Positions 8,199 through 39,718 of a DNA stretch of 53,928 bases are shown piece after piece. A program made the translations under genes and the position numbers. The notes under the pieces are model-generated. The model was not told the DNA's origin. It saw only the letters and a list, made by a program, of their open reading frames with translations, and ran no database searches. Numbering within the stretch: the first letter of the stretch is position 1; each line of letters starts with the position of its first letter. This DNA is from Candidatus Hydrogenedentota bacterium (lineage in GTDB: Bacteria > Hydrogenedentota > Hydrogenedentia > Hydrogenedentales > SLHB01), in NCBI GenBank assembly GCA_045863335.1, contig BTVY01000029.1, positions 30,997-84,924 of the forward strand, in the 5' to 3' direction.

Positions 8199-8216
8199 TT
8201 GGAGGGTGGCGCGGGC

Positions 8217-8427: not shown

Positions 8428-8431
8428 TCCC

Positions 8432-8875: not shown

Positions 8876-8881
8876 GGCGGC

Positions 8882-10972: not shown

Positions 10973-10980
10973 CCATCACT

Positions 10981-14674: not shown

Positions 14675-14680
14675 GGCAGT

Positions 14681-16642
<1,962 letters not shown>

Positions 16643-16830
16643 AAGAGATACATATTCCTTATCTTACGGCAGGTGAGGGCGTACGGTTCGCCCATGATAG
16701 CTTGTATCATAACACACGCTGGGGGGGTGAACAATCCCGCCCCGGCGAAACAACGCCCGTTGCACCTTGTCACGTCAGAAGTTACCATACCGCATCCTGC
16801 ACGAAGCGGTCTTACCTCCGGGAGTTGACT

Positions 16831-17949
16831 ATGAAAAACCAATCGGGGATTCAGCGCGTCGGCGTTGTCATGGCGGGAGGGTCCGGTGAACGGTTCTGGC
16901 CCCTGTCCCGCAAACACCGGCCCAAGCAGCTTCTCCAGTTGACCAGTCAGGACGAGAGCATGCTTGGCGAGGCCGTGTCCCGGCTTTCGCCCCTCATCCC
17001 GGCGGAGCATATTTACGTGGTTACCGGCGCCCACCTTGTCCGGCCCATCCGGGAAGCTGGAGTCGGAGTGCCACCCGAGAACGTCATCGCGGAACCCTGC
17101 AAACGGAATACGGCGGGGGCCTTGACGTATGCTGCGGCGGTCCTGCTCGCCAACTACGGCGGGGACGGTACAAATCTAAGCATGGCCGTTATCACGGCAG
17201 ACCACCAGATCGGCGAGCCCGAGCTGTTCCGGAAAACCGTCGACAGCGCGTTGACGGCGGCGGAGAAAGACGATGTGCTGGCAATTATGGGCATCGCGCC
17301 CTCCCGGCCCGAGACTGGGTACGGCTACGTCCAGGTGACCGACGATGCGTCCTCGGTAAACGATGGGATCTCCGTCCATCCGGTCAAAGCGTTCCACGAG
17401 AAGCCCAGCCGCGAGCGCGCCGAGGACTTCATCGCCACGGGCCAGTACTTCTGGAACAGCGGCATGTTCTTCTGGAAGGTGTCCGTCTTTCTTGATGAAC
17501 TGCTCCACGCCAGCCCGAACCACGCCGCCGCCGTGTCCGCCATGGCCGAGGCGCAACGCAAGGGCGACGCCGATGCCGTCCGCGCCCAGTTCGAGCGCCT
17601 CGAAGACATCTCCATCGACTACGCCCTCATGGAAAAGGCCCGCCGCGTGGTGATGGTCCGCGCCGACTACCCCTGGGACGACGTCGGCGCCTGGACGGCC
17701 TTGGACCGCACCTACCCCAAAGACGCCAACGGCAACGTATCGGTCGGGAATCCCGTCCTTATCGATACCAAAGACTGCATCGTCTACAACGAACCCGGCG
17801 CGACCGACATGGCCGTAAGCGTCGTCGGTGCGCAAGACCTCGTCGTGGTCGTCACGAAGGACGCCGTCCTCGTCATCCCCAAAGACCGCGCCCAGGACGT
17901 GCGGCACGCGGTGGAGGAGTTGAAGCAGAGGAGGGCGGGGCAGTTGTAA
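16831..17949 (+). CDS. manC: Mannose-1-phosphate guanylyltransferase
   Basis: MAGGSGERFWPLSR..PKQ, EPCKRNTA, ETGYGY, FHEKP, WNSGMF, WDDVGAW; start trimmed to the ATG at 16831 after GGAG. Confidence 0.93.
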   Translation: MKNQSGIQRVGVVMAGGSGERFWPLSRKHRPKQLLQLTSQDESMLGEAVSRLSPLIPAEHIYVVTGAHLVRPIREAGVGVPPENVIAEPCKRNTAGALTYAAAVLLANYGGDGTNLSMAVITADHQIGEPELFRKTVDSALTAAEKDDVLAIMGIAPSRPETGYGYVQVTDDASSVNDGISVHPVKAFHEKPSRERAEDFIATGQYFWNSGMFFWKVSVFLDELLHASPNHAAAVSAMAEAQRKGDADAVRAQFERLEDISIDYALMEKARRVVMVRADYPWDDVGAWTALDRTYPKDANGNVSVGNPVLIDTKDCIVYNEPGATDMAVSVVGAQDLVVVVTKDAVLVIPKDRAQDVRHAVEELKQRRAGQL

Positions 17950-18029: not shown

Positions 18030-18057
18030 GTCGCGCGGTCGTCGACCGAGCGACTAC
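18030..18057 (-). repeat. GTAG-led hairpin (REP-like or terminator) at the mannosidase stop codon
   Basis: Minus strand GTAG-TCGCTCGGTC-GAC-GACCGCGCGA, between convergent genes. Confidence 0.45.
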
Positions 18058-21000: not shown

Positions 21001-21188
21001 ATGCCCCGAATTTGGAAAGCTTTCCAGCCCGTCTTCGGCGCGCGTTCGGGTCCCTTGCCGGTCCCGGTAACGCAGCATTCAAGGTTGCCGATGGGTTCGC
21101 GGTCGCTGTAAATGGTCTGCTCGATCTCTCGAATGATCCGCTGAAGTTGCAGCGATTCAATCCGGCGCTCGGCGTCGAAATTGGGCAT
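18054..21188 (-). CDS. Alpha-mannosidase, glycoside hydrolase family 38
   Basis: GHAHIDTAWLWP, WVPDSFGY, GWGDGGGGP, GELYLELHR, NQFHDILPGSSI; ATG at 21188 after AGGAG. Confidence 0.95.
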   Translation of the reverse strand: MPNFDAERRIESLQLQRIIREIEQTIYSDREPIGNLECCVTGTGKGPERAPKTGWKAFQIRGIWGGYDQTTWFRMKATIPASMKGKKVVALVRTISSSYVHGAPDVNEGGESLAYVNGVPFQGLDRNRDELFLTDKAKGGDTFEIVLEACPSTRHDYYHSFGYADIAVMHPEAWDFFWDAQVVWEVIQELDTNFAPARKLMELLDRCVRIVDLQHKGEKAYFESLVKARRALQRGLKEFETSYGMGKLVLAGHAHIDTAWLWPLRETKRKCARTFSTVLNLMDRYPEFHFSCSQPVQYEWIKTYYPELYERIKKRVKEGRWELCGAPWIEPDHNVPSGESLIRQYLYGNRFYEREFGKRSLIAWVPDSFGYTWALPQIMKKAGLTAFVTTKIAWNMFTEFPYSMFQWEGTDGTRTFALMPPLNYNGNPIPKNCIAQWNQFKQKEKADEIPFAFGWGDGGGGPTMNMIEHGKRLGNIVGVPKCEFGRLSDSVERMRKRAEKETLPVYNGELYLELHRACQTTQARTKRNNRKCEVALRDAEFFSVLAHLSDGKYDHARLWDAWKHVLTNQFHDILPGSSINEVYAQADKDYAVANTIIASIRDTALDHILGTIATAGEGVPIVVFNTLGWVRDDIATAKVPNLPDKFCVVDTAGNPVPSQQIGKNEIIFETRNVPPLGHAVYRIVTGTRHAEPSGLLRTTGTGMENDSIRIRFDKFGALTKVYDKVEQREILPKGARANVLQLFDDRPWEHDAWDIDHNYEVQMWEPGPAESIEVIESGPVRAVVRIVRKTERSTITQDVTLYATSPRIDFVTKVDWWEKRVLLKVAFPVDVRATRATYEIQYGAIERPTHTNDAADRARYENTALRWVDLSEGDYGVSLLNDCKYGYDVKENVLRMSLLRSSVDPDPHADEGAHEFTYALLPHAWGWRNGSVHEGHQLNTPLIAVPAEKTNGARSPVGTFASVDNDNVIIDHVKKHEDSDAVIVRLYEAHGQRGDVTLTFERKPVSVSECDLMEENDVPVKTQGNRISFYVTPYELRTFKVKFA

Positions 21189-21268
21189 GGAACGGCTCCT
21201 GTACATCGTGCGGTGCGAGGGCGTCCCTGTGGAAGTTCTTCGTGGGGGACCCCAGGTAATGGGGGCCA

Positions 21269-21298
21269 ATTATAGAGAGGGATTCAGGGCTAGAACAA
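21269..21298 (-). promoter_or_regulatory. Putative sigma70 promoter of the alpha-mannosidase gene
   Basis: Minus strand reads TTGTTC-N18-TATAAT, about 80 bp upstream of the ATG. Confidence 0.45.
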
Positions 21299-23301: not shown

Positions 23302-23883
23302 CTACTCGTCTTGGGCGCGTTTTCGGCGCTGTTCCTCGCGGCGGTGGAGGCGCGCACGGGTCATCCGCTCGCGGACGCCGCCTTCTTCGAGAAAGTCCTG
23401 TTCGAGCCGGCGAACCTGCTGGTCGAGCAAGTAGTTCGTCTGGTGAATCAGGCAGATGACAATATTCGCAACAATCTCGGGGGGTCGAGTCTCGACAATT
23501 GTCTTATACGTCTCATAGGTCCTATTCGTCTTATATCCCATTTTGCGCACATACAAGGCCTCTTCGCTGTCTTTGTTCCAGAGCAGATGACCCCTTGTCC
23601 TCAAGAAGTCCGTGTAGTCGACGAGCAATTCCTCCAGACTCGCGCGCGCTACCTTAGTTAGCTTCAGCTCGGTTTCCTTCGATGTACCGGAGGCTTGGCT
23701 TCCTTCGACAATGTTCTGCTTACCCGACCGGGCCGCTTGGATCATCTGCCCGTGCGTTCGGTCGCGTTTCACGTCCAAGAAATTGTTGCAAAAATAGACC
23801 GTTGCGTCATAGACAATTTCGGCGTTCTGGTAGGAGCGGAGTTGGGCGTAGCCGCCATGGGGTGGAATAAACCCGTCGGCCAT
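23302..23883 (-). CDS. Four-helix-bundle protein with suffix domain (23S rRNA IVS protein/Avd-like fold; TIGR02436 + TIGR04258-like)
   Basis: MADGFIPPHGGY, QMIQAARSGKQNIVEGS, SKETELKLTKVARASLEELLVDY, HQTNYLLDQQ..LEQDFLEEGGVRERMTRAR; AAGGAGGT RBS at 23891-23898 supports the ATG at 23883 (193 aa). Confidence 0.9.
   Translation of the reverse strand: MADGFIPPHGGYAQLRSYQNAEIVYDATVYFCNNFLDVKRDRTHGQMIQAARSGKQNIVEGSQASGTSKETELKLTKVARASLEELLVDYTDFLRTRGHLLWNKDSEEALYVRKMGYKTNRTYETYKTIVETRPPEIVANIVICLIHQTNYLLDQQVRRLEQDFLEEGGVRERMTRARLHRREEQRRKRAQDE
23501..23536 (-). repeat. 9-bp tandem array 2, in frame inside the four-helix-bundle CDS
   Basis: GTCTTATAC-GTCTCATAG-GTCCTATTC-GTCTTATAT; encodes YKT-NRT-YET-YKT. 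Confidence 0.85.
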
Positions 23884-23901
23884 GATTAACACCTCCTTAA
23901 A

Positions 23902-23938
23902 CCTATAGGACCTATAGGACTCATAGGACCAATAGGAC
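23902..23938 (+). repeat. 9-bp TAGGAC tandem array 3 (abuts the RBS)
   Basis: CCTATAGGA-CCTATAGGA-CTCATAGGA-CCAATAGGA-C. Confidence 0.92.
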
Positions 23939-24028
23939 CAACAGACCGAAGTCACTCGAAAACGGAACTTTGCGGGACCATCTCCTGGAGTATTGCTCAA
24001 GCGTTCGCCCAAGGCCCGCCCATCCCGG

Positions 24029-25810: not shown

Positions 25811-27040
25811 TCAGGTTTGGGCATTCGCCAACCGGCTTCCCGCCGGCGATCCCTCCCTGGCAAGCCGTTCAAAAATGTCCGCGGCTGCGGCTGCCCCGTC
25901 CGCGTTCTTCACGGCCTTCGATAACCCGCGCGCCGCCTCGGCATACGAAGAGTCCGACATCAGGCGCTCGAGATTTCGCAACAGCTTTCGCGCCGAGACC
26001 CGTCGTGCCCGCATCTTGATGCAGAACCCGTGGCGGACCCCGACCTTCGTGATCACGTCTTGCTCCAGGTGGGAGGGTAGCGCGATCATCGGCACGCCGG
26101 CCTGGAGCGCCTGATACATGGTGCCATTGCCGCCGTGGAAGATCAGCGCTTTGCTGCGTTTGAGGATTTCCAGGCCTGGCGCGTAGTCGGTGATGCGGAA
26201 GTTCGGCGGCGCCTTCCGAATTGTCTCCTCCCGGGCCTGGCCGCCCGTTGTGACGACGAAACGATAAGGCGCGTCTTTCAGCACGCGATACACCCGTTGC
26301 AGGAAATCGTCCAGGAACCCGGTCGACCCCATGGTGATGTACACGTTCGGCGTGCCGTCATCGAGTTCGTCGACCCAGCCCGGCAGCGGCCCCGGCACTT
26401 CAGAACGGATGGGCCCCACCGTTTGAAAATGCGGGAAATAAGAGGGGGCCTCGTACAACTCTGGCAAGTCAGGCGAAACCAGCGGAATGGACCTTAACAA
26501 CTGCAGCGCATTGACCGGCTCAACGCCATAGCGATCGTAGACCCGCGTGCGGATAGGCGCCAGTATCAACCGGTCGTACAACCGTGCCAGCGGATGGAAC
26601 GCGGACTGCGGCGAAAGGAAATGGCTGGCGTATGCGTTCATGATGCAGGCGGCGGGCGTAGCCGTTATATATGCGGAGGTGGAAGCGCTGATGGACGCAT
26701 CGCCGATCACCAGGTCCGGTTCTTCCCGGCGTATGAGTTCCACCTGGTCTTCGATGATTCCTTGCAGGGGTACCCACTTGTGCAGGGTGTGGAGATCGAG
26801 GGCCGAAGCGGTCCAACCGTATTTCTCGAATCGATCCCAGCCATAGGGATGGAACGGCTCCCGGACCCGCTCCAAGCGGAAGCCGGCCTTTCGCACAAGG
26901 CCAAGCTTGGAGCGCGGGTGCTGGGGATCATCGCCGGCAAAAATCACTTGGTGGCCCTGGGCGCGCAGGACCTTTGCTATCTCCAGGCAGCGAGAGGTGT
27001 GGGCGAGTACGTACCCCAGCGGGAAGAAGATGAACTTCAT
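25811..27040 (-). CDS. GT1/MGT-family glycosyltransferase (GT-B fold)
   Basis: LAHTSRCLEIAKVLRAQGHQVIFAG, VYITMGSTG, IFHGGNGT, GVPMIALPSHLEQ; start trimmed to the ATG at 27040. Confidence 0.88.
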   Translation of the reverse strand: MKFIFFPLGYVLAHTSRCLEIAKVLRAQGHQVIFAGDDPQHPRSKLGLVRKAGFRLERVREPFHPYGWDRFEKYGWTASALDLHTLHKWVPLQGIIEDQVELIRREEPDLVIGDASISASTSAYITATPAACIMNAYASHFLSPQSAFHPLARLYDRLILAPIRTRVYDRYGVEPVNALQLLRSIPLVSPDLPELYEAPSYFPHFQTVGPIRSEVPGPLPGWVDELDDGTPNVYITMGSTGFLDDFLQRVYRVLKDAPYRFVVTTGGQAREETIRKAPPNFRITDYAPGLEILKRSKALIFHGGNGTMYQALQAGVPMIALPSHLEQDVITKVGVRHGFCIKMRARRVSARKLLRNLERLMSDSSYAEAARGLSKAVKNADGAAAAADIFERLAREGSPAGSRLANAQT

Positions 27041-27209
27041 CCGTTCGAAAGATCCGTCTCGGTACGCGTCCCGCGCCTTCGGGGTATGACTTGATAAACT
27101 GACGTAGCTGCTCACGATCACAAACGCAAATGCTCTGCTTCTCTAACCACCGCTCCGCAGCGGCGCACTGGAAATCGGTGCGAGGCGCCGCGCGAAGGCC
27201 AGCCGTATT

Positions 27210-30200
27210 CTACACGACCGACGCTTCCTCAGCGACAGGCACCGGTTCCGCCTCCCAACGGCGGTCCGCAACGTCCAGGCAGTCCTGGATCTCCGCTGCA
27301 ACGCCTTTGGCGTCCGGATCGGCCAACATGGAAATGTGGTTCCCTGGCACCGGCCTGGAATCGATTCGGCCTTTCACGAATGGCTTCCACCCGAGGGTCT
27401 TGTCGGTAAGCCACCGTCGCAACAAACCGCTTCGCGTCGAGGTGACCCACGTGTCGCGCGCAAGTTGAGGGAGGCCGCGCACCACGGCGCGCCAGTCGCG
27501 CTTGACCAGGGCCCAGATCTGGCGCATGGACGGCACAAAGGAATCTTCGGGGATAACCGCGAAGAACCCGCTCGTATACAAATACGCTACATTGCCGGAG
27601 TAGGGTTCCGGACAATATCGCATCGATGCCTTCATTCCCGCGCGGCAGTTCTCGACCAGGCCGGAGATCGCGCCGGGTCCCGCGCTTGGCGCGAGAAAGT
27701 TGACGCGCTTCAACTCCTGAAGGACGGCCTCGTACTGGGCGTCGTGGTCGAGCTTGCGCAGGTGGCGATAGCGCAACTCGATGGGCGTCGAGAAAAAGTA
27801 CTCCACCATCATCATCACGCTCGCCAACCACATGGCGTCGTCCGCCGCGTCCAACAAGAGATCGTAAAGGTTATTGCCGCGGTCGCCGGGGATCGGCGCG
27901 AAGCTGTCCATGAGGACGATCGCGCCGACTTCATGCCCCTGTTGTTCCAGTTGTCTCGCCATTTCAAACGCAATCGTGCCGCCGGACGAGTGGCCGCCGA
28001 TATGGTATGGACCTTCCGGCCGGACGGATCGCATCGCCTCGACGTAGCACGCCGCCGTTTCTTCGATGGTGTCGAATATGCGGCCCACGCCATTGATAGC
28101 GGGCGCCTGCAAGCCGTAGAAGGGCCGATCGGAGTCGATATGTTGCGCGATTGGGATATAGCAGAACACCGTGCCGGGAGCCGGATGCACGCAGAAGAAA
28201 GGCGCTTTCGAACCTTCCGGCCGTATGGGGACCAATACGGAATCGGAGACGCGGTTCTGCGAACGCAAAATGCACGCAAGCCGCTCGATCGTGGGCGCCT
28301 CGAACAGTTTCGCCGGCGCCAAACGCTGGCCAAACCGGCTCTCGATCTCGTCCATCAATTGGACCGCCGACAGCGAGTGCCCGCCCAAATCGAAGAAGTT
28401 GTCGGTAACGCCGACCGGCCGCACATCCAGCACGTGTTCCCAGATGCGCTCCAATTCCAGTTCCAGCGAATCCCGCGCGGCTTGCGCGGTCCCGCTGACT
28501 TCGCGCGCGCTGCGCGTGGGCTGAGGCAGCGCCTTCCGATCCACTTTGCCATTCGGGGTTAGCGGTAGCGTGTCCAGGGCGACAAATGCCGACGGCACCA
28601 TATACTCCGGCAAGGCGTGCCGGAGATACGCTCGCAGCTCGCCGTTGAACGACCGGCCGTTGGACTTGGTCACGACGTAGGCCACAAGGCGATGATCGTC
28701 AGGCACGTCTTCCCGCGCGATGACCACGTTGTCGGCAATGTCCGGATGCGCGGCGATTCGCGATTCGATCTCGCCAAGCTCGATTCGGTACCCGCGAATC
28801 TTGACTTGGTGATCCTTCCGCCCCAGGAACTCGATGTCCCCATTCAAGCGGTAGCGCGCCACGTCGCCCGTGCGGTAGAGGCGGTCGTTCGCTCCTGAAC
28901 CGAAGGGGTTCGGGATAAATCGTTCCGCCGTCAGGCCGGCGCGATTGAGGTAACCGCGGGCAACGCCGATGCCTCCGATGTACAGCTCGCCCGCGATACC
29001 CGGCGGCGTCACGCGCAGGGACTCGTCGAGGATATAGACCTGGGTATTCGCAATCGGTCTTCCGATGACCGGATCTTCAGTCGATGCTCCGTCGCATTCG
29101 GCAATCGTCGCGCACACGGTGGCCTCGGTAGGGCCGTAGGCGTTCAGAAACCGGCGGCCGGGCGCCCATTTCCCCACCACCGACGCTGGACAACGTTCAC
29201 CCGCCGCAATGACGGTCTTCAACTCCGAAAGATCCACCGGGTCGATAACCTTCAGCACAGACGGCGGAAGCGTGACCGTTGTGATCCGTTCATCACGCAA
29301 TACGCCTGCGAGGTCGTCAGCCGATGCCATGGTCTCCTGCCGGGCCAGGCACAAGGTCGCCCCGGCACACAGTGCCGTGAAGATCTCCGATACGGAAGCG
29401 TCGAAACTCAACGAGGCGAACTGGAGCAGGCGGCTGTTTCGGTCGATCTGAAAGGCGCTAATCTGCGCCGCGATCAGATTGCACAGTCCGCGGTGTTCTA
29501 AGAGGACGCCCTTCGGCGTTCCCGTCGACCCCGACGTATAGATAACGTACGCGAGATCGCAGGAGGTCGTGCTGCCATTCGGATTCGTGTCAGGGCAAGT
29601 GGCAAGAGTTGCCCAATCCGTGTCCAAGCATATTGCGCGCACCCCTGAGGCGGGTAGTAACTCCGATACTCGGGCCTGCGTCAGCAGCACGCGCACCTGC
29701 GCATCCTGGATCATAAAGGCCAGTCGTTCCGGCGGATACGACGGATCCAATGGCACATACGCGCCGCCCGCCTTCAAGATGCCGAGCACGCCCGCAATCA
29801 TGTCCAGCGAACGCTCGACGCACAACCCGACCATGGTTTCCGGACCAACACCTTCCAAGCGAAGGAAATGGGCGATTTGATTGGCCCGGGCGTTCAATTC
29901 CGCGTACGTTAGGGTGTTGGACTCAAAGACAACTGCGGTCGAATTGGGAGTCTGCTTCGCCTGCGCTTCAAACCATTCATGAGCGGTCTCGTATGGAGGA
30001 AGCGGCGCGTCAGTGCGATTGAGATCATCGACCAGACGCGTGCGCTCGTCCGCAGATAGCAACTCCATAGCGCTCACGGATCGAGACGGATCGTCGATCA
30101 TATAGTCCATGGCGCGCACGAACTGGTCGACCGTGAGTTGTTGCGCCTCGTCGTTGAACAGTGCGGTATTAAAGTCGAAGGTGATTCCCATGTTTCCGGA

Positions 30201-31385
30201 CACGGGATGATCGTAGAAGCTGATGACCAGCGGATCGGCGCCGTAGCCGGAATGTATCCAACGAATTTCGCAATTCGCGCCTTGAAATCCCGGCATCGCC
30301 CATAGCAGGTAATTCAGCAGGATGTCGTGCGACTGCGTATCCGCCAGATGGTGCAAATAGGTTCCGCAATTCCGAAGAGAGGCCGAGGCGTCCTCAGCAA
30401 CCTTCTTGATCAGCGTGAACGCCGTATCCCCGTCGTCCACACGAACGCGCAAGGGGAGCACGCCGATGAATATCCCCGGCGTTTGCTTATGGACATCGGG
30501 ACGGCGATTGTGAAAAGGCATGCCGATTGCAATGTCCCGGTTGCCGTTCATGCGATGGACGTACCCCGCAAGCACTGCGGAATAGATGTTGAACGTCGCC
30601 GCGAAGGGGGTCTTCGTCGCCACATCCTCATGCTGCGCGAGCCGCCGGATCCGCTCCGAGCGTTCCGGCCCCAAGTCCACCCGACGATGAACGATGCGCC
30701 CCGCGGTGCGCTGGAGGGGCGCGCCGTAGAACGACATGGGCTCCGGCGGAGAAGCTGACTTGGCTTTCCAGAATTCCAATTCCCTGGGATCGGCGTCCTG
30801 ATTTCTCCGGTCCATGCTATCGGCAACATAGTCGGCGAACGCGGGAACTGCCGGCGCTCCGTCAAGCCTGCCTTGCGTGGCCAGTCCGTAGTACTCGTCC
30901 ATGTACCGCATGGTAATGAGAACGGAAAATGCATCGGTAATGATGTGATGCTGGGCGAGATACCAGGCGCATTTCTCGGGTCCCAGCCGCACCAATGCGG
31001 AATCGAACAATCGTTGACCGAAATCGAAAGGCCGGCGGCAACGTTCCTGCGCCCACGACTCGAACGCTTCGACCGGATCCGCCGCACTCGAGAGATCGAC
31101 CTCGTCCAGGGTAAATTCCACACGCGGCAGGACCCGCTGCTGCGGCACCCCGTCAATGATCTCAACCACCGTGCGCAGGGCGTCGCATCGTTGAATCAGC
31201 GTATCAAAGGCTTGGCGAAACAGCGTTGTATCGAGAGGAAGAGGGATGATTAACGCGAGCGCGTTGTTGTACAGGGGGACATCGGGGTTGAGCTTCTGAC
31301 CGAGCCAAAAGATCCATTGCGTCTTCGTCAGATTCGATCGGCGGTAAATATCCAACCCGTGAACTCCAGACAAACGCGTGGCCAT
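27210..31385 (-). CDS. Single-module NRPS: C-A-T-TE
   Basis: C: HHIITDAFS. A: YTSGSTGTPKG, FDASV, NAYGPTE, YRTGD, RGYRIELGEIE, NGKVDR. T: FFDLGGHSL. TE: GHSSGG, PGNH. Start estimated at the ATG at 31385. Confidence 0.93.
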   Translation of the reverse strand: MATRLSGVHGLDIYRRSNLTKTQWIFWLGQKLNPDVPLYNNALALIIPLPLDTTLFRQAFDTLIQRCDALRTVVEIIDGVPQQRVLPRVEFTLDEVDLSSAADPVEAFESWAQERCRRPFDFGQRLFDSALVRLGPEKCAWYLAQHHIITDAFSVLITMRYMDEYYGLATQGRLDGAPAVPAFADYVADSMDRRNQDADPRELEFWKAKSASPPEPMSFYGAPLQRTAGRIVHRRVDLGPERSERIRRLAQHEDVATKTPFAATFNIYSAVLAGYVHRMNGNRDIAIGMPFHNRRPDVHKQTPGIFIGVLPLRVRVDDGDTAFTLIKKVAEDASASLRNCGTYLHHLADTQSHDILLNYLLWAMPGFQGANCEIRWIHSGYGADPLVISFYDHPVSGNMGITFDFNTALFNDEAQQLTVDQFVRAMDYMIDDPSRSVSAMELLSADERTRLVDDLNRTDAPLPPYETAHEWFEAQAKQTPNSTAVVFESNTLTYAELNARANQIAHFLRLEGVGPETMVGLCVERSLDMIAGVLGILKAGGAYVPLDPSYPPERLAFMIQDAQVRVLLTQARVSELLPASGVRAICLDTDWATLATCPDTNPNGSTTSCDLAYVIYTSGSTGTPKGVLLEHRGLCNLIAAQISAFQIDRNSRLLQFASLSFDASVSEIFTALCAGATLCLARQETMASADDLAGVLRDERITTVTLPPSVLKVIDPVDLSELKTVIAAGERCPASVVGKWAPGRRFLNAYGPTEATVCATIAECDGASTEDPVIGRPIANTQVYILDESLRVTPPGIAGELYIGGIGVARGYLNRAGLTAERFIPNPFGSGANDRLYRTGDVARYRLNGDIEFLGRKDHQVKIRGYRIELGEIESRIAAHPDIADNVVIAREDVPDDHRLVAYVVTKSNGRSFNGELRAYLRHALPEYMVPSAFVALDTLPLTPNGKVDRKALPQPTRSAREVSGTAQAARDSLELELERIWEHVLDVRPVGVTDNFFDLGGHSLSAVQLMDEIESRFGQRLAPAKLFEAPTIERLACILRSQNRVSDSVLVPIRPEGSKAPFFCVHPAPGTVFCYIPIAQHIDSDRPFYGLQAPAINGVGRIFDTIEETAACYVEAMRSVRPEGPYHIGGHSSGGTIAFEMARQLEQQGHEVGAIVLMDSFAPIPGDRGNNLYDLLLDAADDAMWLASVMMMVEYFFSTPIELRYRHLRKLDHDAQYEAVLQELKRVNFLAPSAGPGAISGLVENCRAGMKASMRYCPEPYSGNVAYLYTSGFFAVIPEDSFVPSMRQIWALVKRDWRAVVRGLPQLARDTWVTSTRSGLLRRWLTDKTLGWKPFVKGRIDSRPVPGNHISMLADPDAKGVAAEIQDCLDVADRRWEAEPVPVAEEASVV

Positions 31386-31459
31386 GCCGGGGTCGCGTGC
31401 TAACGTCTCATCGTATACGGGGCGAGCAGGAGCCTCGTCTGCGAGGTCTGCCCCGTAGA

Positions 31460-32410
31460 TTATCCATGCTCCGGTATGGAACTCGTTCCGGTCTCCACCA
31501 TCGGACGATCGGAGGGCGGCTGGTTCGGCGCGATTGCGAAACCGCGTTCCCTCAGCACGGTCCGAATCTCTTCGTGCAGTGCGGGCGCAAGTTGCCCGCG
31601 CTCCTTCAAATGGCCGGGGCAATTGTGCCGGCCAGTTGCCACCGGAACCAATTTGATCTCCGGCAAATGTTCAACCAGTTTCGCCTGGTCCGCGTCAGGT
31701 TTGCAGTACTTTCCGTAGAAAATCGTCCCCCGCGGACGGGGAGAAGCGTTCTCGTATTCAGCAAGCACGTCGAAGAACCCCTTGTCGCCAAGCTGCTTTT
31801 TGCACCAGTGGGTGATGACGTTTGCCGACAACGCGACAAGCACCACTTCAATGTATTCCGTCGGCCGCGTGAAGAGTTTCTTGAAGTTGAACAAGGCATG
31901 AAACTGGGGCCCAAGACCGGTCCATACGGTCGGCGGGAATGCCGGCGCGAATCCGATGACGTGATCCATGCCACAGCGGACGCCGAAGTAGAAGGCGGCG
32001 CTCCCACCGCCGGAAGCGCCCATGGCCACATGATGTGTCGCGCCAAGTTGATCGCAGATTTCCTTTACTTTGCGCGTGTAGTATTCGAGGCCGGTGGGCT
32101 TCCCGTCGGGCGCTACGTGATAAGCCATGCGGCGCAGGTCCCGGACGAACACCAGGTTTGTGTTGTGCCCGAGGCCCGCCAATTGCTTGCGCATCTCGAA
32201 GCGCGGCTCGCCTGCGAACAGGACGTCCATGCCCGAAAATATTACGATTGTCACGTCCGCGCCGCGATCTTCAATCCGGAAGTAGTCCTCCTCGTTCGAG
32301 ATGGCGTTCTCGCCTTCGAAGACCTTGAAGGTGCCCTCTTCCTCCATGTTGCGAGCCAGGCTCGGCAGGAACATGCGCGTAAGAACGCGAAAGACCTTTT
32401 CTTTCAGCAT
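31460..32410 (-). CDS. Alpha/beta-hydrolase-fold protein
   Basis: IFSG, GASGGG nucleophile elbow, C-terminal GRHN; ATG at 32410 after GGAGAGG. Confidence 0.7.
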   Translation of the reverse strand: MLKEKVFRVLTRMFLPSLARNMEEEGTFKVFEGENAISNEEDYFRIEDRGADVTIVIFSGMDVLFAGEPRFEMRKQLAGLGHNTNLVFVRDLRRMAYHVAPDGKPTGLEYYTRKVKEICDQLGATHHVAMGASGGGSAAFYFGVRCGMDHVIGFAPAFPPTVWTGLGPQFHALFNFKKLFTRPTEYIEVVLVALSANVITHWCKKQLGDKGFFDVLAEYENASPRPRGTIFYGKYCKPDADQAKLVEHLPEIKLVPVATGRHNCPGHLKERGQLAPALHEEIRTVLRERGFAIAPNQPPSDRPMVETGTSSIPEHG

Positions 32411-32420
32411 GACCTCTCCG

Positions 32421-33584
32421 TTACCCGTTAGCGTTGCCAACGTCTTGCGTCGCCGCGCGTGAGTCAAGTACTTCGTTGTACAGTTGCCGGACGGTTCTCG
32501 CCTGAACTTCCAGCGAAAACTGCTCGACCGCCTTCGTTCGGGCGGCCCGGCCCATTTCAAAGAGTCGCTGTCGATCCGCCTGCAGCGCGTGAAGCGCCTC
32601 GAATAGCCCGTTGGCGGAACCGTCAAAGACGAACCCGTTTACCCGGTCGTCGACAATTTCGGACAGCATGCCGCGGTCGGCCACGACGGCCGGTTTACCC
32701 ATGGCCATGGCCTCGCGAACGGCGCGACAGGTTCCATCGCTGCCCGGTACCAGGAACACCTTGGTCGAAAAGGCCTTTACCATCCCGACGTAGTTCTCGC
32801 CGGCGACATAGCCTGGAAAATGGACCCGGTCCGATAATCCCAGTGTTTCGACAGGTTGCCATCCCACACGTGCTTGATTGGTGCCTCGACCCACTACTAT
32901 AGCATGAGCATCGCATCCGGCGTCTACCAATCGACGAATTGCGTGGAAGAAATCCTCGTAGCGCCGGTGCAACTGCATCCGGGCTACGATTCCAACCACA
33001 AAAGCCTGCGGTCCGATTCCAAGCCAGCGGCGGCCATCCGGGACCTCCCGGGACGGGTCGAACCGCTCCACATCTACCGCTCCTGGAACTACTTGCATAG
33101 ACTCGCGCGGGTAGCCGTAGGTTTCAGCGTCATGCTCCAAAGCGATGCGCGACGGTTCCAGCAGGCGGGCCGTTCGCATGAGGAGCGGGCCTTGCCGCGC
33201 CGGCTTTTGTAACCCCGTGCCATCGTAATTTGAGCGGACGAGCGGAATCCCGAGCCGCCCGGCAGGACCGGCCGCGATGCGGTGGTCGTTTTCGAGATGG
33301 CAATGGACGAGATCGTACGGAGTCGTTTTGAGATGGCGCGTTAGCGCCTGCGAATCGAAGAAATTGGCCACCGGATTGCGGTGCTTGTTTAGCCGGAAGG
33401 CAAGGATTGGCTCCACCCCCCGGTCGCGGGCGGTCTCCAATAGGGTATGCTGGGTGCCCGCCGGGAGATTCGGGAACGCCAAGTCCGCCTCGACCCCAAG
33501 CTTTCGCAGCGACACCACCAGGTTCAGCGCGGGCTCGGCGGGTCCGGTGTACTTCGCATTGCTGAAGAGGTGAAGGACTTTCAT
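32421..33584 (-). CDS. Glycosyltransferase family 4
   Basis: MKVLHL, GAVDVERF, GIVARM, EAMAMGKPAVV..GMLSEIV..NGF. Confidence 0.9.
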   Translation of the reverse strand: MKVLHLFSNAKYTGPAEPALNLVVSLRKLGVEADLAFPNLPAGTQHTLLETARDRGVEPILAFRLNKHRNPVANFFDSQALTRHLKTTPYDLVHCHLENDHRIAAGPAGRLGIPLVRSNYDGTGLQKPARQGPLLMRTARLLEPSRIALEHDAETYGYPRESMQVVPGAVDVERFDPSREVPDGRRWLGIGPQAFVVGIVARMQLHRRYEDFFHAIRRLVDAGCDAHAIVVGRGTNQARVGWQPVETLGLSDRVHFPGYVAGENYVGMVKAFSTKVFLVPGSDGTCRAVREAMAMGKPAVVADRGMLSEIVDDRVNGFVFDGSANGLFEALHALQADRQRLFEMGRAARTKAVEQFSLEVQARTVRQLYNEVLDSRAATQDVGNANG

Positions 33585-33635: not shown

Positions 33636-36600
33636 CTAAGCCGCGCCGTCGAACCGGACGCTCACCAACTGGGAGACGCCGCGCTCCTGCTGTGTTACCC
33701 CATAAAGCGCGTCGGCCTTCGACATGGTCTGTTTGTTGTGGGTGATAACGACGAATTGGCTCGACGCCGTGAACTCGGACAGCAGCGCCAGGAACCGTCC
33801 GATATTGGCATCGTCCAGGGGCGCGTCGACCTCGTCCAGCACGCAGAATGGGCTGGGCTTGGCCTTGAAGATGCTAAACAGCAGCGCCACCGCCGTCATC
33901 GCGCTCTCACCACCGGAGAGCAAGGAGATGGACGTGGGTTTCTTTCCGGGAGGCCGCGCTTCGATTTCGATGCCCGATTCCAGCGGATCGTCCTCGTCGA
34001 GCAGGTAGACCCGGGCTTGACCGCCATTGAACAGGCGGCGGAAGAAATTGCTGAAGTTGTCGCTGATGCTCTTGAAGGTCTCCAGGAACATCTCGCGAAT
34101 CTTTTTGTCGCTGCGTTCGATGACGCCCATCAGCGCCTCGCGCGCCTGATGCAGATCCTGAGACTGGGTTTCGAGGAAGGCGTTGCGCTCTTCCAGCGCC
34201 TCGTACTCCTCGATGGCCATCAAGTTAACCTCGCCCATGCGCTGGATACGCTGCCGCAAGTCGTCGACCAGCTTGTGGCGCGTCTCGTCGTCGTGCTCAT
34301 CGGTGCCGACCTTCTCCGCGTCAAGGGAGGCAAGCGATACCTGGTACTCCGACGCAATGCGTTCCTGGAAGAACTCGACGCGGTCCTCGTCGTGGCGCAG
34401 GTCCAGTTCGAGCTTATGCACCTGGGATTGCACCGAACGGGCCTCTTCGCGATGCTGCTTCAGATCCTTGTCGATGGCGTCGCCTTCGTCCAAGAGCGCC
34501 TGCAACTGGTTCTGCGCCTCAACGGCCTTGCGCGTGGCTTCTTCCTTCGTTTCGGACAAGGCCTTAGACCGTTCGATGTGCAGCGCGATCTCGTTGTCGA
34601 GCGTCTTCTTCTGCTCTTCCAGTTCCGCGATCAGTTCCTTACGCCGCTCGGCCTGCGCGAGTGCCTCGGTACGCTCGCGATCTTCGCGCTGCCGGTCACG
34701 CTCGATCTCTTCGAGGCGCTGCGCGGTGCCGGCTTTCTGGACGCGCAGATCGGCAAGCGCGCTTGCACATGCCGATAGCGCCTGGCGCGCGTTGGACGCG
34801 GCTTCCTGCGCTTCGGACATCTGCTGCTCCAGGATTTCGTCGTCGCTCTGGATCGTGTCGGCGCGCTGCAACGCCTCACGCCGCTGCTGCTCGAGTTGCT
34901 CGCGCCGCGCGCCCAATTCATTGCGGCGCTCGTCCAGGGCGCGTCCGGACTGGACCAGGTTGTCCAATTCCGCGCTGGCACGCGCGATGGCAACGCCCAC
35001 ATCGCCCACTTCCTTGCGAAGGCCCGTCAGCCGGGCGTCCAAGTCCCGCAGCTCCTGCGCGGACCCCGTCAGCGCCTCCGCCAATTGCTGCCGCTCCGAC
35101 GCTATCTCGCCAATCCGTTTCTCCGTCTGGGCGGTGCGCTCTTCGAGTTCCGTAATCTCCGCGCTCCGTCCCAGCAGCCCGCGGCTCTCGTGCCGGGTCC
35201 GTCCGCCGGTCACCGCGCCGGCGGCCGATACAACCTCGCCGTCCAACGTGACGAGACGGGGATGACTGGTGCGCGTCCGCGTGATGCGAATGGCATCGTC
35301 CAAAGTTTCGACGATTACGGTGCTGTACAGCAGGTACTCCACCGCGCTGCGCAGCTTCGGCTCGAATCGCACGAAATCGATGGCGGCGCCGATGACGCCG
35401 GGCTGGTCTTTCAAGGAGGATCCATCGTCGCGTAGTCCGCCGCGGATGGTGTCGAGCGGCAGAAACGTCACGCGGCCCGCATTGTGCTGTTTCAAGAAGC
35501 CGATGGCGTCTTTCGCCGCGTCGGCCACGTCCACGACGATGTTATTGATGTTGCCGCCGAGCGCGGCTTCGATGGCTTTCTCGAACTTCTTGTCCGACGA
35601 GAGCAGGTCGCCGACCGGGCCAATGATGCCCTTGAGCATATCCTTGCTGCTTGCCTTCATGATGGCGCGCACGCCGACCGCGAACCCTTCGTAGTTGTCA
35701 CGGAGTTCGCGCAGGGAGTTCAGCCGCGCTTCGATACTGCTTTTCTCTTCGCGCTGCGTGCGCCACTGCTCGTCCAGATCCTGCAACGAAGCCGTCTGTT
35801 GTTCGCGCGTGGCGCTGACCTCTTGACGGCGCCGCTCCGCATCGGCCAATTCCGACTGCTTCTCGGTCTCGCGCGCCCGGTCCGTTTCGAGGACAGACAG
35901 CAATTCCTCGCGCCGCGTGGAAACGCTGTTCTGTTCTTCGTAGACCCGTTCGAGTTGTGCGTCGATCCCGCCGATGTTCTCGGCAAGCGTTTCGATGGCG
36001 CTCTGGGTGCGTGCGCGATCCGTCATGCGCTCGGCCGCCAACTTGCGCATGTGTTCCAGGTGCTCGTCGGTCTTGGCCACGCGGTCCGCGAGTTCCGCGT
36101 GCTCCGCACTTTGCCGTGCGATGCTTTCTTCGTGCGCCGCCAGTTCGCGCCGGACATCCTCCGCGCGCCCGCCGGTACCGCTTATCTGTTCGACCAGGGC
36201 GTTCGCACGCTGCTCCAGATCGGCCTGGTCCTCTTGCGCCTGTTCCCGCTTCTCGTCGGCGTAGGCGATCTGCTGCCGCAGGAGCGCGATCTGGCGCTCG
36301 ATCTTCTCCATTTCCGAGTCGATTTCGTGGACGCCCTGCTGCCGGGCCAACCGCACGCGTTCGACCTCAAGCCGGCTCAGGCCAACTTCTTCCTGGCGCG
36401 CTTCGAGCTTGGTGATTTGCGTCGTCAATTGTTCGAGCCGTTTGCCCGACGACGCGAAGTTTTTGCGGAGTTCCGCAATCTCGGTGGTCAATCGAACGAA
36501 CTCAAACCAAGCCGCGCGGATTTCGATATCCCGGAGCTGGTCGCTCAGTTCCCGGTATCGGATCGCCGCGTTGACCTGCCGCTTTAAGGACCGCATCTGG

Positions 36601-37199
36601 CGTTGCACTTCCGCGATGATGTCGCCCAGGCGAAGGAGGTTTTGTTCCGCCGATTCCAGCCGCCGCATGGCGAGACGCTTGCGGTTCTTGTATTTGATGA
36701 TTCCCGCGGCTTCCTCGAACAAGTACCGCCGATCTTCCGGCTTCGAGCTGAGGATCATGTCCATCTTGCCCTGGCCGACCATGGAGTAGGCTTGCGTGCC
36801 GATCCCCGTGTCCATGAACAGCTCATGGATGTCCTTGAGCCGGCACGGGGCCTTATTCATGAGGTATTCGCTTTCGCCGGAGCGATAGACGCGGCGCGTG
36901 ATTTCCACTTCTGCAAAATCGACGGGAAGCGCCGAGTCGGCGTTGTCGAAGGTGACGGAGACTTCCGCCATGCCGAGGGCATGCCGGTTTTCGCTTCCGT
37001 TGAAGACAACGTCCTGCATGTGGGAACCGCGGAGTTCCTTCGCGCGCTGTTCTCCCAGCACCCAGCGCAAGGCATCGAGAATATTGCTCTTGCCGCAGCC
37101 GTTCGGGCCGACGATCGCCGTGACGCCCGGCTCCATACGAAGGATCGTCCGGTCCGCGAACGATTTGAAGCCGGTCATCTCAAGTTGTTTGAAATACAT
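33636..37199 (-). CDS. smc: Chromosome segregation protein SMC
   Basis: GFKSFA, GPNGCGKSN, long coiled coils with hinge GRVTFLPL, LSGGE, LDEVDAPLD; ATG at 37199. Confidence 0.97.
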   Translation of the reverse strand: MYFKQLEMTGFKSFADRTILRMEPGVTAIVGPNGCGKSNILDALRWVLGEQRAKELRGSHMQDVVFNGSENRHALGMAEVSVTFDNADSALPVDFAEVEITRRVYRSGESEYLMNKAPCRLKDIHELFMDTGIGTQAYSMVGQGKMDMILSSKPEDRRYLFEEAAGIIKYKNRKRLAMRRLESAEQNLLRLGDIIAEVQRQMRSLKRQVNAAIRYRELSDQLRDIEIRAAWFEFVRLTTEIAELRKNFASSGKRLEQLTTQITKLEARQEEVGLSRLEVERVRLARQQGVHEIDSEMEKIERQIALLRQQIAYADEKREQAQEDQADLEQRANALVEQISGTGGRAEDVRRELAAHEESIARQSAEHAELADRVAKTDEHLEHMRKLAAERMTDRARTQSAIETLAENIGGIDAQLERVYEEQNSVSTRREELLSVLETDRARETEKQSELADAERRRQEVSATREQQTASLQDLDEQWRTQREEKSSIEARLNSLRELRDNYEGFAVGVRAIMKASSKDMLKGIIGPVGDLLSSDKKFEKAIEAALGGNINNIVVDVADAAKDAIGFLKQHNAGRVTFLPLDTIRGGLRDDGSSLKDQPGVIGAAIDFVRFEPKLRSAVEYLLYSTVIVETLDDAIRITRTRTSHPRLVTLDGEVVSAAGAVTGGRTRHESRGLLGRSAEITELEERTAQTEKRIGEIASERQQLAEALTGSAQELRDLDARLTGLRKEVGDVGVAIARASAELDNLVQSGRALDERRNELGARREQLEQQRREALQRADTIQSDDEILEQQMSEAQEAASNARQALSACASALADLRVQKAGTAQRLEEIERDRQREDRERTEALAQAERRKELIAELEEQKKTLDNEIALHIERSKALSETKEEATRKAVEAQNQLQALLDEGDAIDKDLKQHREEARSVQSQVHKLELDLRHDEDRVEFFQERIASEYQVSLASLDAEKVGTDEHDDETRHKLVDDLRQRIQRMGEVNLMAIEEYEALEERNAFLETQSQDLHQAREALMGVIERSDKKIREMFLETFKSISDNFSNFFRRLFNGGQARVYLLDEDDPLESGIEIEARPPGKKPTSISLLSGGESAMTAVALLFSIFKAKPSPFCVLDEVDAPLDDANIGRFLALLSEFTASSQFVVITHNKQTMSKADALYGVTQQERGVSQLVSVRFDGAA

Positions 37200-37341
37200 C
37201 GAGTGTTCGTATGTTCCCAAACCGCGTGACGCGGGTGTAACGTTCTTTGTTCAGTGACGACAAGCTGCGGTGGGGCGATACCCATCGCGGAGGCCCAAGC
37301 CTCGGAATGTTGCCGCCCGCATGATATGCGGCAAACGGCCA

Positions 37342-38142
37342 CTACGCTTCCGGTGAATCCTCATTCAGCACACGCTGCACGCGCGTAATGCTCCGGGCGC
37401 AGCCGGTGTTATCGTCCGCATCAATCACCACCGCACATACCCCGGGCCGCTCGTTTGCCACCGTATGGGGTACCGGCATTCCCGTCAGAAACTTCTGTAC
37501 GCTTAAATGGCGATCCAACCCGATCACAGAGTCGAAAGGTCCCGTCATTCCCACGTCGGTGATGTACGCCGTACCCTTAGGCAGTACCCGCTCGTCGGCG
37601 GTTTGCACGTGGGTGTGCGTCCCCACCACCGCGGTGCACTGTCCGTCCAGGTACCAACCCATCGCGACCTTTTCGGCGGTGGCCTCCGCGTGGAAGTCCA
37701 CGAGGATAAGCGCTGTCTCCTCCCGGAGTTTCCGCACCTCGCGCAGGCCAACCTCGAAGGGGCTGGCAAAGGGTTCCATATAGACCCTGCCGATCAGGTT
37801 TACGACCCCGACTTTGCGGCCATCATCCAGCGCGACGACCATGCTGCCCTGTCCGGGCGCCTGTTCTGAATAGTTCGCGGGTCGAATCACGGGGCCTGCC
37901 GAATCGATGCCCTGCACGAGTTCGCGCTTGCGCCACGTATGGTTCCCCATCGTGATCCCCTGGATCCCCATTCCCTGGAGTTCCTTCAGGATCGATGGCG
38001 TAGCGCCCAGCCCGCCCGCGGCATTCTCCCCATTCGCCAGAACCAAGTCAATCGCGTACGTTTCCCGCAGCTCGGGCAACCACCGTTTGATGCACCCGCG
38101 GCCAACGCTTCCAACAATGTCGCCGATGAACAGGATACGCAT
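37342..38142 (-). CDS. ymdB: YmdB-like metallophosphoesterase (TIGR00282)
   Basis: GDIVG, NGENAAGG, GNH, DFHAEATAEK, GTHTHVQT; directly downstream of rny. Confidence 0.93.
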   Translation of the reverse strand: MRILFIGDIVGSVGRGCIKRWLPELRETYAIDLVLANGENAAGGLGATPSILKELQGMGIQGITMGNHTWRKRELVQGIDSAGPVIRPANYSEQAPGQGSMVVALDDGRKVGVVNLIGRVYMEPFASPFEVGLREVRKLREETALILVDFHAEATAEKVAMGWYLDGQCTAVVGTHTHVQTADERVLPKGTAYITDVGMTGPFDSVIGLDRHLSVQKFLTGMPVPHTVANERPGVCAVVIDADDNTGCARSITRVQRVLNEDSPEA

Positions 38143-38152: not shown

Positions 38153-39718
38153 CTACTTCGCCAATTCGGATGCGCGCGTCTCGCGAATCACCGTCACCCG
38201 GATCTGGCCGGGATACGTCATTTCGGCTTCCACCTTGCGCGCTACGTCGCGCGCCAACTGCATGGCCTCGGCATCGGTGATCCGATCGGGCTGCACGGCG
38301 ATTCGGATCTCCCGTCCCGCCTGCAACGCGTAGGATTTTTCCACGCCCGGGAACGCGTCGGCAATCTCTTCGAGTTGTTCGAGGCGCTTGATGTACGTTT
38401 CCACCGTCTCGCGCCGCGCGCCGGGCCGCGCCGCCGACAAGGCGTCCGCCGCCTGCACGAGGACCGCCATGACGGTCTTCTGTTCCATTTCGTTGTGGTG
38501 CGCGCCGACCGCGTTCGCGATCGACTCGCTTTCGCCGTACTTCTTCACGAAATCGTGCCCGATTACGGCGTGAGATCCTTCCACTTCGTGGCTGATGGAT
38601 TTCCCGATATCGTGGATGAGCGCGGCCCGTTTCGTTTCCGGCACGTTCAGCCCGAGTTCAGAAGCCATAATCCCGGCAAGGTGACAGACTTCCATCGAGT
38701 GCTTCAGCACGTTCTGACCGTACGAGGTCCGGTAACTCAGGCGTCCCAGGAGCTTGATGATCTCGGGGTGAAGGCCGTGAACGTCCACTTCAAGGCAGGC
38801 CTGTTCGCCCATCTCCTTGATCGTCTTGGCCATCTCTTCTTTGACTTTTTCGACGACTTCTTCGATGCGTGCGGGGTGGATGCGGCCGTCCGTAATCAAG
38901 CGTTCCAGCGTGATTCGGGCGATCTCCCGGCGCACGGGATCGAATCCGGACAGAATGACTGCTTCCGGGGTGTCGTCAATAATGATGTTGATGCCGGTGG
39001 CGCTTTCGAGGGCGCGAATATTCCGGCCTTCCCGTCCAATGATACGCCCCTTCATTTCATCATTGGGCAGGGGAACGACGGACACCGTGGTCTCCGCCAC
39101 GTGGTCCGCTGCGCAACGTTGTATCGCCTGCGCGATCACCCACTTGGCCTTCTTGTCCGCGTTCTCGACGAGTTCCTCTTCGATTCGCTTTAATCGTACC
39201 GCGGTGTCACGGCGAACCTCGGTTTCGAGCTGCTGGAACAATTCCTTGCGCGCTTCGTCCGCGCTCATGCCGGAGATGTACTCCAGCTTCTGGGTCTGCT
39301 CCGCGATGACGTGGGTGAGTTTTTCCTTTTCTTTGCCGAGCGTTGCTTCTCGTACACCAAGATCGCGTTCTTTCGCGGTCAATTCTCCGGCTTTGCGCTC
39401 GATGGTTTCGACGCGCTTGTCAACCGTTTCTTCTTTTGCCAGGATTCGCTTTTCGAGGGCCACGAGTTCTTTTCGAAATTCTCGCGCTTCCCGTTCCGCC
39501 TCTTCCCGAAGTTGGATTCGCTGTTCCTTGATGGTTGTGTTCGCTTCTTTGATGATCGAAGCGGCTTCGCGCTCTGCGTCTGAAATAGTCTGGGCCGCGT
39601 CGCGACGCGCCTTCCCCAGCAAACTCCTCCCGAACAAGCTGGCGCCGACTACGGCGACGACCAGCCCCGCCACGAAACCCGCTCCGATCCACGCGAAAAT
39701 CAGTGGATCAGAAAACAT
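38153..39718 (-). CDS. rny: Ribonuclease Y
   Basis: N-terminal TM, coiled coil, KH ([13 protein letters not shown]), HD domain (HDIGK), [11 protein letters not shown]. Confidence 0.97.

Follow-up and report, generated by a model that had tools for sequence, protein, structure and literature searches.

A stand-alone, putatively lipoinitiating nonribosomal peptide synthetase, apparently inserted into an older hydrolase-glycosyltransferase operon of Hydrogenedentota, with a possible glyco-lipoamino acid product

The DNA analysed here is a stretch of 53,928 nucleotides (the window) from contig BTVY01000029.1 of Candidatus Hydrogenedentota bacterium (assembly GCA_045863335.1; host genome 6.75 Mb, 99.4% complete), and matching contigs occur in runs of 14 studies, from sludge, bioreactors and wastewater. 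Its subject is a lone nonribosomal peptide synthetase (NRPS) gene and the neighbours of this gene, which lie on the minus strand behind the genes of RNase Y (rny, 38153-39718), YmdB (ymdB, 37342-38142) and SMC (smc, 33636-37220); these three, recognised by Pfam, are syntenic anchors outside the claimed pathway. According to the list of open reading frames (ORFs) and Pfam, the order of transcription is RNase Y, YmdB, SMC, a GT4 glycosyltransferase, an alpha/beta hydrolase (ABH), the NRPS and a GT1 glycosyltransferase. The GT4 gene (32421-33584, 387 residues; Pfam Glycos_transf_1 and Glyco_transf_4) is the first past smc and ends 10 nt short of the start of the ABH gene (31460-32410), whose product of 316 residues was recognised by its fold and its Ser133-Asp239-His262 triad; the maximal ABH ORF covers 31460-32626 and the conserved start at 32410 was taken. 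The NRPS (27210-31385, about 1391 residues) is a single module with the Pfam order condensation (C, starter-like), adenylation (A), thiolation (T) and, last, thioesterase (TE), and its conserved start is the ATG at 31385, the maximal ORF (27210-31622) overlapping the 3' end of the ABH gene. The last gene, GT1 (25811-27040, 409 residues, MGT/UDPGT-like; Pfam EryCIII-like_C and UDPGT), has a maximal ORF of 25811-27121 and a likely start at 27040, from which the protein begins with MKFIFF. Beyond GT1, a convergent ADP-ribosylglycohydrolase gene was found on the plus strand by Pfam. Since these are long ORFs with strong domain matches, chance is no concern for the gene calls: the genes of the cluster are real and the NRPS is intact. 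The co-directional order GT4, alpha/beta hydrolase, C-A-T-TE NRPS and GT1 behind rny-ymdB-smc is that described in the original prediction, which had proposed, from the sequence of the window, a minimal dedicated cluster for a glycosylated N-acyl-tyrosine.

In the NRPS, the Pfam families Condensation (6.5e-52), AMP-binding (7.9e-89), AMP-binding_C (4e-14), PP-binding (5.4e-15) and Thioesterase (2.2e-27) follow one another in this order. The C domain occupies 30033-31331 (ORF residues 98-530), the A domain 28545-29972, the thiolation, or peptidyl carrier protein (PCP), domain 28275-28454 and the TE domain 27213-28202, all on the minus strand, and the motifs HHIITDA (C), GGHSL (T) and GHSSG (TE) are intact in the translation. 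The Pfam Thioesterase match spans residues 1141-1252 (profile positions 2-113 of 226); the long C-terminal half of the TE domain lies outside the Pfam model and stays conserved in the orthologs up to about residue 1376-1394, counted on the trimmed protein, in which their alignment begins at residue 8-10. An A domain, a T domain with the serine of GGHSL and a TE domain with GxSxG are all there and the genome encodes a phosphopantetheinyl transferase (PPTase), as in a type I NRPS module. This PPTase (266 aa, ACPS and AASDHPPT_N) is of the Sfp type and is encoded on another contig, C18; PPTase and acyl-CoA ligase families were found in none of the 31 window ORFs scanned, as had been noted from the window before. 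For MbtH (PF03621), the search of the 99.4%-complete genome returned 0 matches, control genomes being positive. On contig C18 (C18:56001-76000, locus L129), three genes, all on the minus strand (5406-6206, 6252-13091 and 13128-14921), form an olefin-synthase-like set made of a fatty acyl-AMP ligase (FAAL; AMP-binding plus a DIP2-like domain), a 2279-aa polyketide synthase (PKS) with the order ketosynthase, acyltransferase, ketoreductase, acyl carrier protein (ACP), sulfotransferase and TE, and the Sfp-type PPTase, the only one of the genome. This FAAL-PKS layout presumably resembles that of the CurM/Ols terminal-alkene synthases.

The module starts with the C domain and has no other module before it, the gene upstream being the ABH and no NRPS. 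When the C domain was compared with the Protein Data Bank (PDB) by phmmer, RzmA-Cs ranked first (7c1k, 1e-26; 7c1h, 2.4e-26) and CDA-C1 next (5du9, 4.7e-24), followed at lower ranks by ObiF1 (8.8e-23), Txo2 (1.1e-20), SrfA-C (5.7e-14), EntF (1.5e-12) and TycC (2e-7). 7C1H is given as RzmA-Cs and CdaPS1 is likewise named a starter domain (PMC7804268). An internal C domain from this genome, taken as a control, ranked Txo2 first (7e-101), with 7c1h at merely 9e-17; the C domain of a lone NRPS paralog on contig C38 resembled the query in its ranking (7c1k, 7e-30). Since the internal control and the C38 paralog rank differently, the PDB ranking discriminates starter from internal C domains. In a tree of 252 C-like domains from related loci, labelled by their position in the protein (FastTree, midpoint root), the query belonged to a clade of 17 leaves (support 0.946), of which 15 are first in line, one stands at a contig edge and one comes second in an N-terminal C-C pair. 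Besides these last two, the clade is composed of 11 ortholog leaves (one genome twice), the C38 paralog and three further first-in-line domains; it contains none of the 110 domains that follow a T domain and none of the 35 continuation domains. The HHxxxD motif is retained in 10 of the 10 syntenic orthologous C domains inspected. At the column of R148, the chain-length gate of RzmA, the query has Val and the orthologs have F, I or V, never Arg; smaller side chains at this position are described as leading to longer acyl chains (PMC7804268). Among solved structures, RzmA-Cs and CdaPS1-C1 stand closest to the C domain, in which HHxxxD is kept and a small or hydrophobic residue, Val, occupies the gate, yet these top scores are only 97 and 88 bits and both relatives come from multi-module lipopeptide lines (PMC7804268).

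By its sequence relatives, the C domain therefore looks like a starter (lipoinitiation) type, as had been supposed for a lone N-terminal C domain. Because the PDB ranking and the tree agree on this type, the chemistry with the best support is N-acylation of the amino acid, a fatty acyl thioester being the donor, and it seems somewhat probable that the NRPS performs N-acyl amino acid synthesis. A C domain that does not lipoinitiate, and would instead accept an aryl or aminoacyl group from a carrier protein whose gene lies elsewhere, as in EntF or MxcG, or condense two carrier-bound residues iteratively towards a siderophore-like product or a dipeptide, is very improbable. Such proteins share the C-A-T-(TE/R) layout, the window has no acyl-activating gene, and the NCBIfam models of EntF and MxcG give 482.8 bits (cut-off 2400) and 550 bits (cut-off 2300), scores that lie far below the cut-offs; however, the C domain of EntF is distant (1.5e-12 versus 1e-26 for RzmA-Cs), aryl carrier, isochorismatase and DHB-AMP ligase families were found in none of the window ORFs, and the genome has no MbtH. 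The paralog on contig C38 (C38:13571-17683; 10571-14683 of locus L084, plus strand) is a second lone C-A-T-TE NRPS of 1370 aa, 34-38% identical, whose pocket is DAFFLGVTFK and whose C domain is starter-like. Its gene stands among those for a PfkB kinase, RidA and a TPR-peptidase, has no glycosyltransferase beside it and is kept as a lone gene across the genus.

The pocket residues of the A domain were pulled by a script via the motifs FDxS, TLPP, IAAG, NAYGPTE and GKxDRK, and the code obtained, DASTIAAVCK, is the one that had been read by eye. We take DASTVAAVCK to be the tyrosine code of the Stachelhaus table; literature searches on specificity codes yielded no paper. Either DASTIAAVCK or DASTVAAVCK is present in 4 of the 4 genomes examined of the genus to which the host belongs (g1), the latter in G106. 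In the syntenic orthologs of two other genera, the pockets are DAMLIGAVYK/DAMLVGAVYK (g18) and DPCLEGAVCK/DPLLEGAVCK (g14), so that the Tyr-type pocket is confined to g1 among syntenic orthologs. The g18 code DAMLVGAVYK equals DAMLVGAICK at 8 of 10 positions, and the latter is reported as called leucine by antiSMASH (PMC12964202). The top PDB matches of the A domain are LgrA, McyB, ApnA-A1, TycA and GrsA, a ranking that gives no substrate diagnosis. Tyrosine is the substrate suggested for g1 by the pocket residues. The identity to the g14 and g18 proteins is 42-48% for C, 55-58% for A, 62-67% for T and 49-52% for TE. A swap of A domains as the source of the pocket change was rejected on these values, the identity of A (55-58%) exceeding that of C (42-48%); as A is no less conserved than C or TE, the pocket was altered via point substitutions.

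The GT1 protein matches the Pfam families EryCIII-like_C (7.4e-15, 55.6 bits, cut-off 31.7) and UDPGT (6e-10, 39 bits, cut-off 19.5), falls outside the NCBIfam MGT subfamily (109.8 bits versus a cut-off of 260) and has YjiC, OleD/OleI and CalG as nearest solved relatives (E about 1e-16). These relatives place it with the glycosyltransferases of the small-molecule type, in agreement with the original prediction. For GT4, Pfam gave Glycos_transf_1 (4.1e-18) and Glyco_transf_4 (3.7e-12), no NCBIfam family reached its cut-off (EpsE, MshA and BshA at about 56-70 bits), and the nearest solved relative is MshA (3c4q, E 7e-9). GT1 is duplicated in the NRPS-bearing genomes. A GT1 paralog (47-48% identical) lies on contig C42 (C42:26456-30274, locus L085) with a short-chain dehydrogenase, a family-less 188-aa protein and an aldo-keto reductase. 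Within the window, genes for a phosphomannomutase/phosphoglucomutase (12481-13845), a mannose-1-phosphate guanylyltransferase-like protein (16702-17949) and a GH38 alpha-mannosidase (18054-21269) lie 5-13 kb downstream of GT1 and are a possible sugar-nucleotide supply.

The hydrolase matched no family in Pfam or NCBIfam, and neither did five further members of its family; remote relatives gave only weak matches to Abhydrolase_6, Hydrolase_4 or UPF0227. Ser133, Asp239 and His262 are invariant in 22 aligned homologs, Ser133 lying in a GASGG elbow (G-x-S-x-G). The AlphaFold model (pLDDT 83.8, pTM 0.84) was best matched by EstE1 (2c7b; Z 17.0, rmsd 3.9, 242 residues aligned) among 421 chains with a Z of at least 8, and its nearest structures are hormone-sensitive-lipase-type (HSL-type) esterases. 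Lower in the list stand acyl transferases, namely the sugar O-acetyltransferase CsaC (Z 14.5) and FbpC1 (Z 13.9). Foldseek found generic alpha/beta hydrolases only in the PDB (TM 0.40-0.51) and unnamed clusters only in the Atlas, with an Asp2 feature in 11% of one cluster. A profile search of 1.84 billion representatives returned 56 cluster representatives at E<=1e-30. A word-indexed homolog search returned 34 proteins, of which those named by their source are "hypothetical" and those named by NCBI come from Candidatus Hydrogenedentes. On the strength of the model, ABH has the alpha/beta-hydrolase fold, and its family is small and uncatalogued. An ABH paralog, 39% identical, is found at C1:171999-177807 (locus L081), where the neighbouring genes encode a PaaK-like ligase with AMP-binding and AMP-binding_C_2 domains, a GT9 and a Glyco_trans_1_2/DUF3880 protein; two large NRPS genes of the same contig (196465-214589) lie at a distance of about 20 kb.

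The distribution of the locus was surveyed in 135 Hydrogenedentota genomes. A full-length syntenic NRPS ortholog is present in 13 of them, spread over three genera (6 of 6 genomes in g1, this one included, 5 of 5 in g14 and 2 of 3 in g18), with 46-99% identity. Nine of ten fetched ortholog loci have the order rny-ymdB-smc-GT4-(ABH)-NRPS-(GT1); the tenth holds an NRPS relative of 38-40% identity without any of the neighbours. GT4 follows smc in all 14 fetched loci of family f1 that include smc. ABH is found in 54 of the 135 genomes and GT1 (E<=1e-40) in 43. The two are adjacent (within 150 nt) without an NRPS in 12 pairs from 11 other genomes of families f1, f7, f10, f12 and f13, and lie 0.9-1.5 kb apart in 5 more genomes, where a GT2 gene in three fetched loci and a DUF1559 gene in a fourth stand between them. 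SMC-GT4-ABH-GT1 is contiguous without an NRPS in two genomes of sister genera (G117 and G118), and SMC-GT4-ABH only was found in G082, G101 and G093. Of the whole locus, SMC-GT4-ABH shows the strongest conservation, and the suggestion that GT4 may be an unrelated gene is thereby inverted. In family f10 the other genes around the ABH-GT1 pairs (GroEL, L/F-transferase, M16 peptidase, GFO oxidoreductase) are of a housekeeping-like kind and offer no hint of a pathway.

The 71 more distant NRPS loci from public genomes contained no homolog of GT1 or ABH and four weak matches to GT4 (25-29% identity), and conservation of the cluster beyond the phylum was rejected on this count. The expected co-occurrence of GT1 and hydrolase with NRPS homologs thus holds in three genera and fails beyond them. 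A public contig, CAZWDH010000099.1 (locus L006), carries the same locus with a 94% identical NRPS under the title "uncultured Nitrospiraceae bacterium"; it is probably mislabelled or misbinned, all other close relatives being labelled Hydrogenedentes or Hydrogenedentota. In an SMC tree whose root was set by five other families (5 outgroups), g18, g1 and g14 group in one clade (0.996), which lies within a set of NRPS-less genera. As the NRPS-bearing genera make up one nested clade, the simplest history has the NRPS enter once, between ABH and GT1, by which it would be a newcomer in an older ABH-GT1 glyco-module.

These results bear on the dedicated minimal cluster of the original prediction, in which GT1 would attach a sugar to the tyrosine of an N-acyl-tyrosine, the hydrolase would assist and GT4 would be unrelated. 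The co-directional genes, the starter-type C domain, the Tyr-type code in the g1 genomes and the small-molecule type of GT1 are all in its favour, but the pockets of g18 and g14 differ and GT1 is still kept there, the hydrolase-GT1 pair is widespread and older than the NRPS, which came by one later insertion, and GT4 is the most stably linked neighbour; we consider this cluster quite improbable. As genera without a Tyr-like pocket retain GT1 as well, the conserved product cannot be a glycoside of the phenol, and glycosylation of the tyrosine phenol is unlikely as the conserved chemistry. Should the NRPS product be the acceptor of GT1, a more likely site would be the lipid (e.g. a 3-hydroxyl, as in variovoracins and rhamnolipids) or the carboxyl end.

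The reading that we put forward, with confidence evenly divided between yes and no, is a stand-alone lipoinitiation NRPS inserted into an older hydrolase-GT1 operon, with a glyco-lipoamino acid as a possible product. The gaps flanking the NRPS are short (about 74 and 169 nt), and the consensus scan found no terminator-like site in either of them, its promoter and terminator counts being at shuffle level. The position and orientation of the NRPS are unchanged through the three genera. The ABH/NRPS junction is spanned by one contig of an RNA-labelled run and the GT4/ABH junction by two; in X17 most of GT1 is without cover, which carries no weight either way. That the neighbours glycosylate the NRPS product is a tentative proposal, which falls clearly short of an even chance.

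Several observations weigh against the proposed insertion of a lipoinitiating NRPS with a glycosylated product. On the side of the NRPS, the loci of the C tree were picked by similarity to the query and its starter clade is small, eight other first-in-line C domains fall outside that clade, and the gate residues F and I of the orthologs are bulky. Acyl ligase, ACP and FAAL were found in none of the window ORFs, which leaves the acyl donor gene without a local candidate. Tyrosine is a substrate predicted from the code, and the pocket differs in the orthologs of g18 and g14. On the side of the neighbours, ABH is absent at the NRPS locus in both g18 genomes, the g18 GT1 that stands beside the NRPS falls among the second-copy paralogs, apart from the GT1 of g1 and g14, and ABH-GT1 pairs exist in genomes where no NRPS accompanies them. 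The NRPS/GT1 gap is spanned by none of the contigs listed, and the RNA-labelled data are assembled contigs, in which DNA carry-over is possible.

Two independent functions may also share one operon site. The NRPS would then make a free N-acyl amino acid or a TE-joined dimer like that of SwrW, and GT4, ABH and GT1 would act on an unrelated glycoconjugate, e.g. an O-acylated envelope glycolipid or glycan, the insertion being merely tolerated. The NRPS-less pairs, adjacent in 11 genomes and near in 5 more, the contiguous SMC-GT4-ABH-GT1 of G117 and G118, the second lone C-A-T-TE protein with no glycosyltransferase nearby, the distant NRPS relatives with neither GT1 nor ABH and the weak likeness of ABH to the sugar O-acetyltransferases CsaC and Asp2 are all compatible with this explanation. 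It is opposed by the position and orientation of the NRPS, held through three genera despite the divergence of the pocket, by the short flanking gaps in which no terminator-like site was seen, and by the duplication of GT1 in NRPS-bearing lineages. We regard independent functions as rather unlikely, although they are the strongest of the rivals considered here.

Elsewhere in the window, a span of 12 kb contains three genes of the TrkH family and one for TrkA (921-3978 and 10310-12492), and four ORFs between the Trk genes (3893-10216) have no Pfam family. A gene at 23302-24012, on the minus strand, encodes a four-helix-bundle protein with a TIGR04258 suffix domain (23S rRNA intervening-sequence protein family), of which two paralogs are found on contigs C30 and C25.

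Among known systems, an analogy of arrangement only is offered by rhlA-rhlB, where an alpha/beta-hydrolase gene stands beside a GT1 gene as in ABH-GT1. RhlA has the alpha/beta-hydrolase fold and rhlA and rhlB are adjacent genes. RhlA is absent among the 50 best fold matches of ABH, which has no named family in Pfam or NCBIfam. In rhamnolipid synthesis, as summarised in the source, RhlA builds the hydroxy-fatty-acid dimer and RhlB glycosylates it (PMC12964202). The variovoracin clusters are the closest in kind when compared by their described layout: RlpB, a starter-C NRPS, and RlpC, a GT1, make glycolipopeptides (PMC12964202). An N-terminal starter C domain and a GT1 directly downstream of the NRPS are common to both systems, single-module, one-amino-acid variants are predicted among the variovoracin clusters, and the lipid genes lie outside the cluster, as here. 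According to the same description, release there is by an R domain and an MbtH gene is present, whereas here release would be by the TE and the genome has no MbtH. No hydrolase belongs to the layout as described; here the uncatalogued ABH and GT4 stand upstream, and the GT1-hydrolase pair also exists without the NRPS. The variovoracin hosts are Pseudomonadota, whereas the present one is an uncultured sludge bacterium of another phylum. SwrW, of serrawettin W1 (serratamolide), is likewise a stand-alone C-A-T-TE protein, which combines one amino acid with a fatty acid into an amino lipid (PMC7767323). The substrates of SwrW are serine and 3-hydroxydecanoate, two units are joined by its TE and no glycosyltransferases are linked to it, whereas the pocket here is of the Tyr type and glycosyltransferases are neighbours (PMC7767323). 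The NasY N-acyl amino acid synthases make N-acyl tyrosines such as stieleriacines and thalassotalic acids, the same class, long-chain N-acyl tyrosine, as the core product predicted here; these are described as stand-alone synthases, an enzymology that differs from that of an NRPS (PMC12479983). A literature search with the phylum name and "nonribosomal peptide" gave nothing on such a cluster in the portions of the records available, and one on the Alcanivorax glycine-glucolipid NRPS and glycosyltransferase gave nothing usable.

In the proposed mechanism, the A domain would load an aromatic amino acid, perhaps tyrosine as the g1 pocket suggests, onto the carrier domain, and the starter C domain would N-acylate it, primary metabolism supplying the fatty acyl-CoA or acyl-ACP. 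The TE would then release a free N-acyl amino acid or transfer it to a hydroxyl group. The neighbouring glycosyltransferases may decorate or receive the acyl-amino acid to give a glyco-lipoamino acid, the conserved attachment lying elsewhere than on the phenol. ABH-GT1 would be an older, phylum-wide pair, accompanied in this family by GT4 directly behind smc, into which the NRPS would have been inserted once, between ABH and GT1, at the base of the three-genus clade of one family; the amino-acid pocket would later have diverged between the genera, with position and neighbours retained.

A wider, speculative extension, which we judge unlikely, is that ABH-GT1 with GT4 or GT2 represents an undescribed glycolipid pathway with an rhlAB-like gene arrangement, its product being capped in one clade by an N-acyl amino acid tuned by genus. 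The ABH family would in that case build or O-acylate a lipid or a sugar, the caps would be Tyr-like, Leu-like and other, and nature would thus offer a series of glyco-lipoamino acids that serve as surfactants or as lipids of the envelope. If the lipoinitiating NRPS acts as proposed, this uncultured phylum would have an NRPS route to N-acyl tyrosine separate from the NasY route, and a compact four-gene glyco-lipoamino-acid system of interest for biosurfactants. The locus would also be a clean natural case of an NRPS module inserted into an existing glycosylation operon and re-tuned by point changes in its pocket. An unnamed hydrolase family paired with GT1 in at least 16 genomes is worth characterising in its own right, and the point of greatest interest is this uncatalogued hydrolase-GT1 module and what the inserted NRPS may contribute to it.

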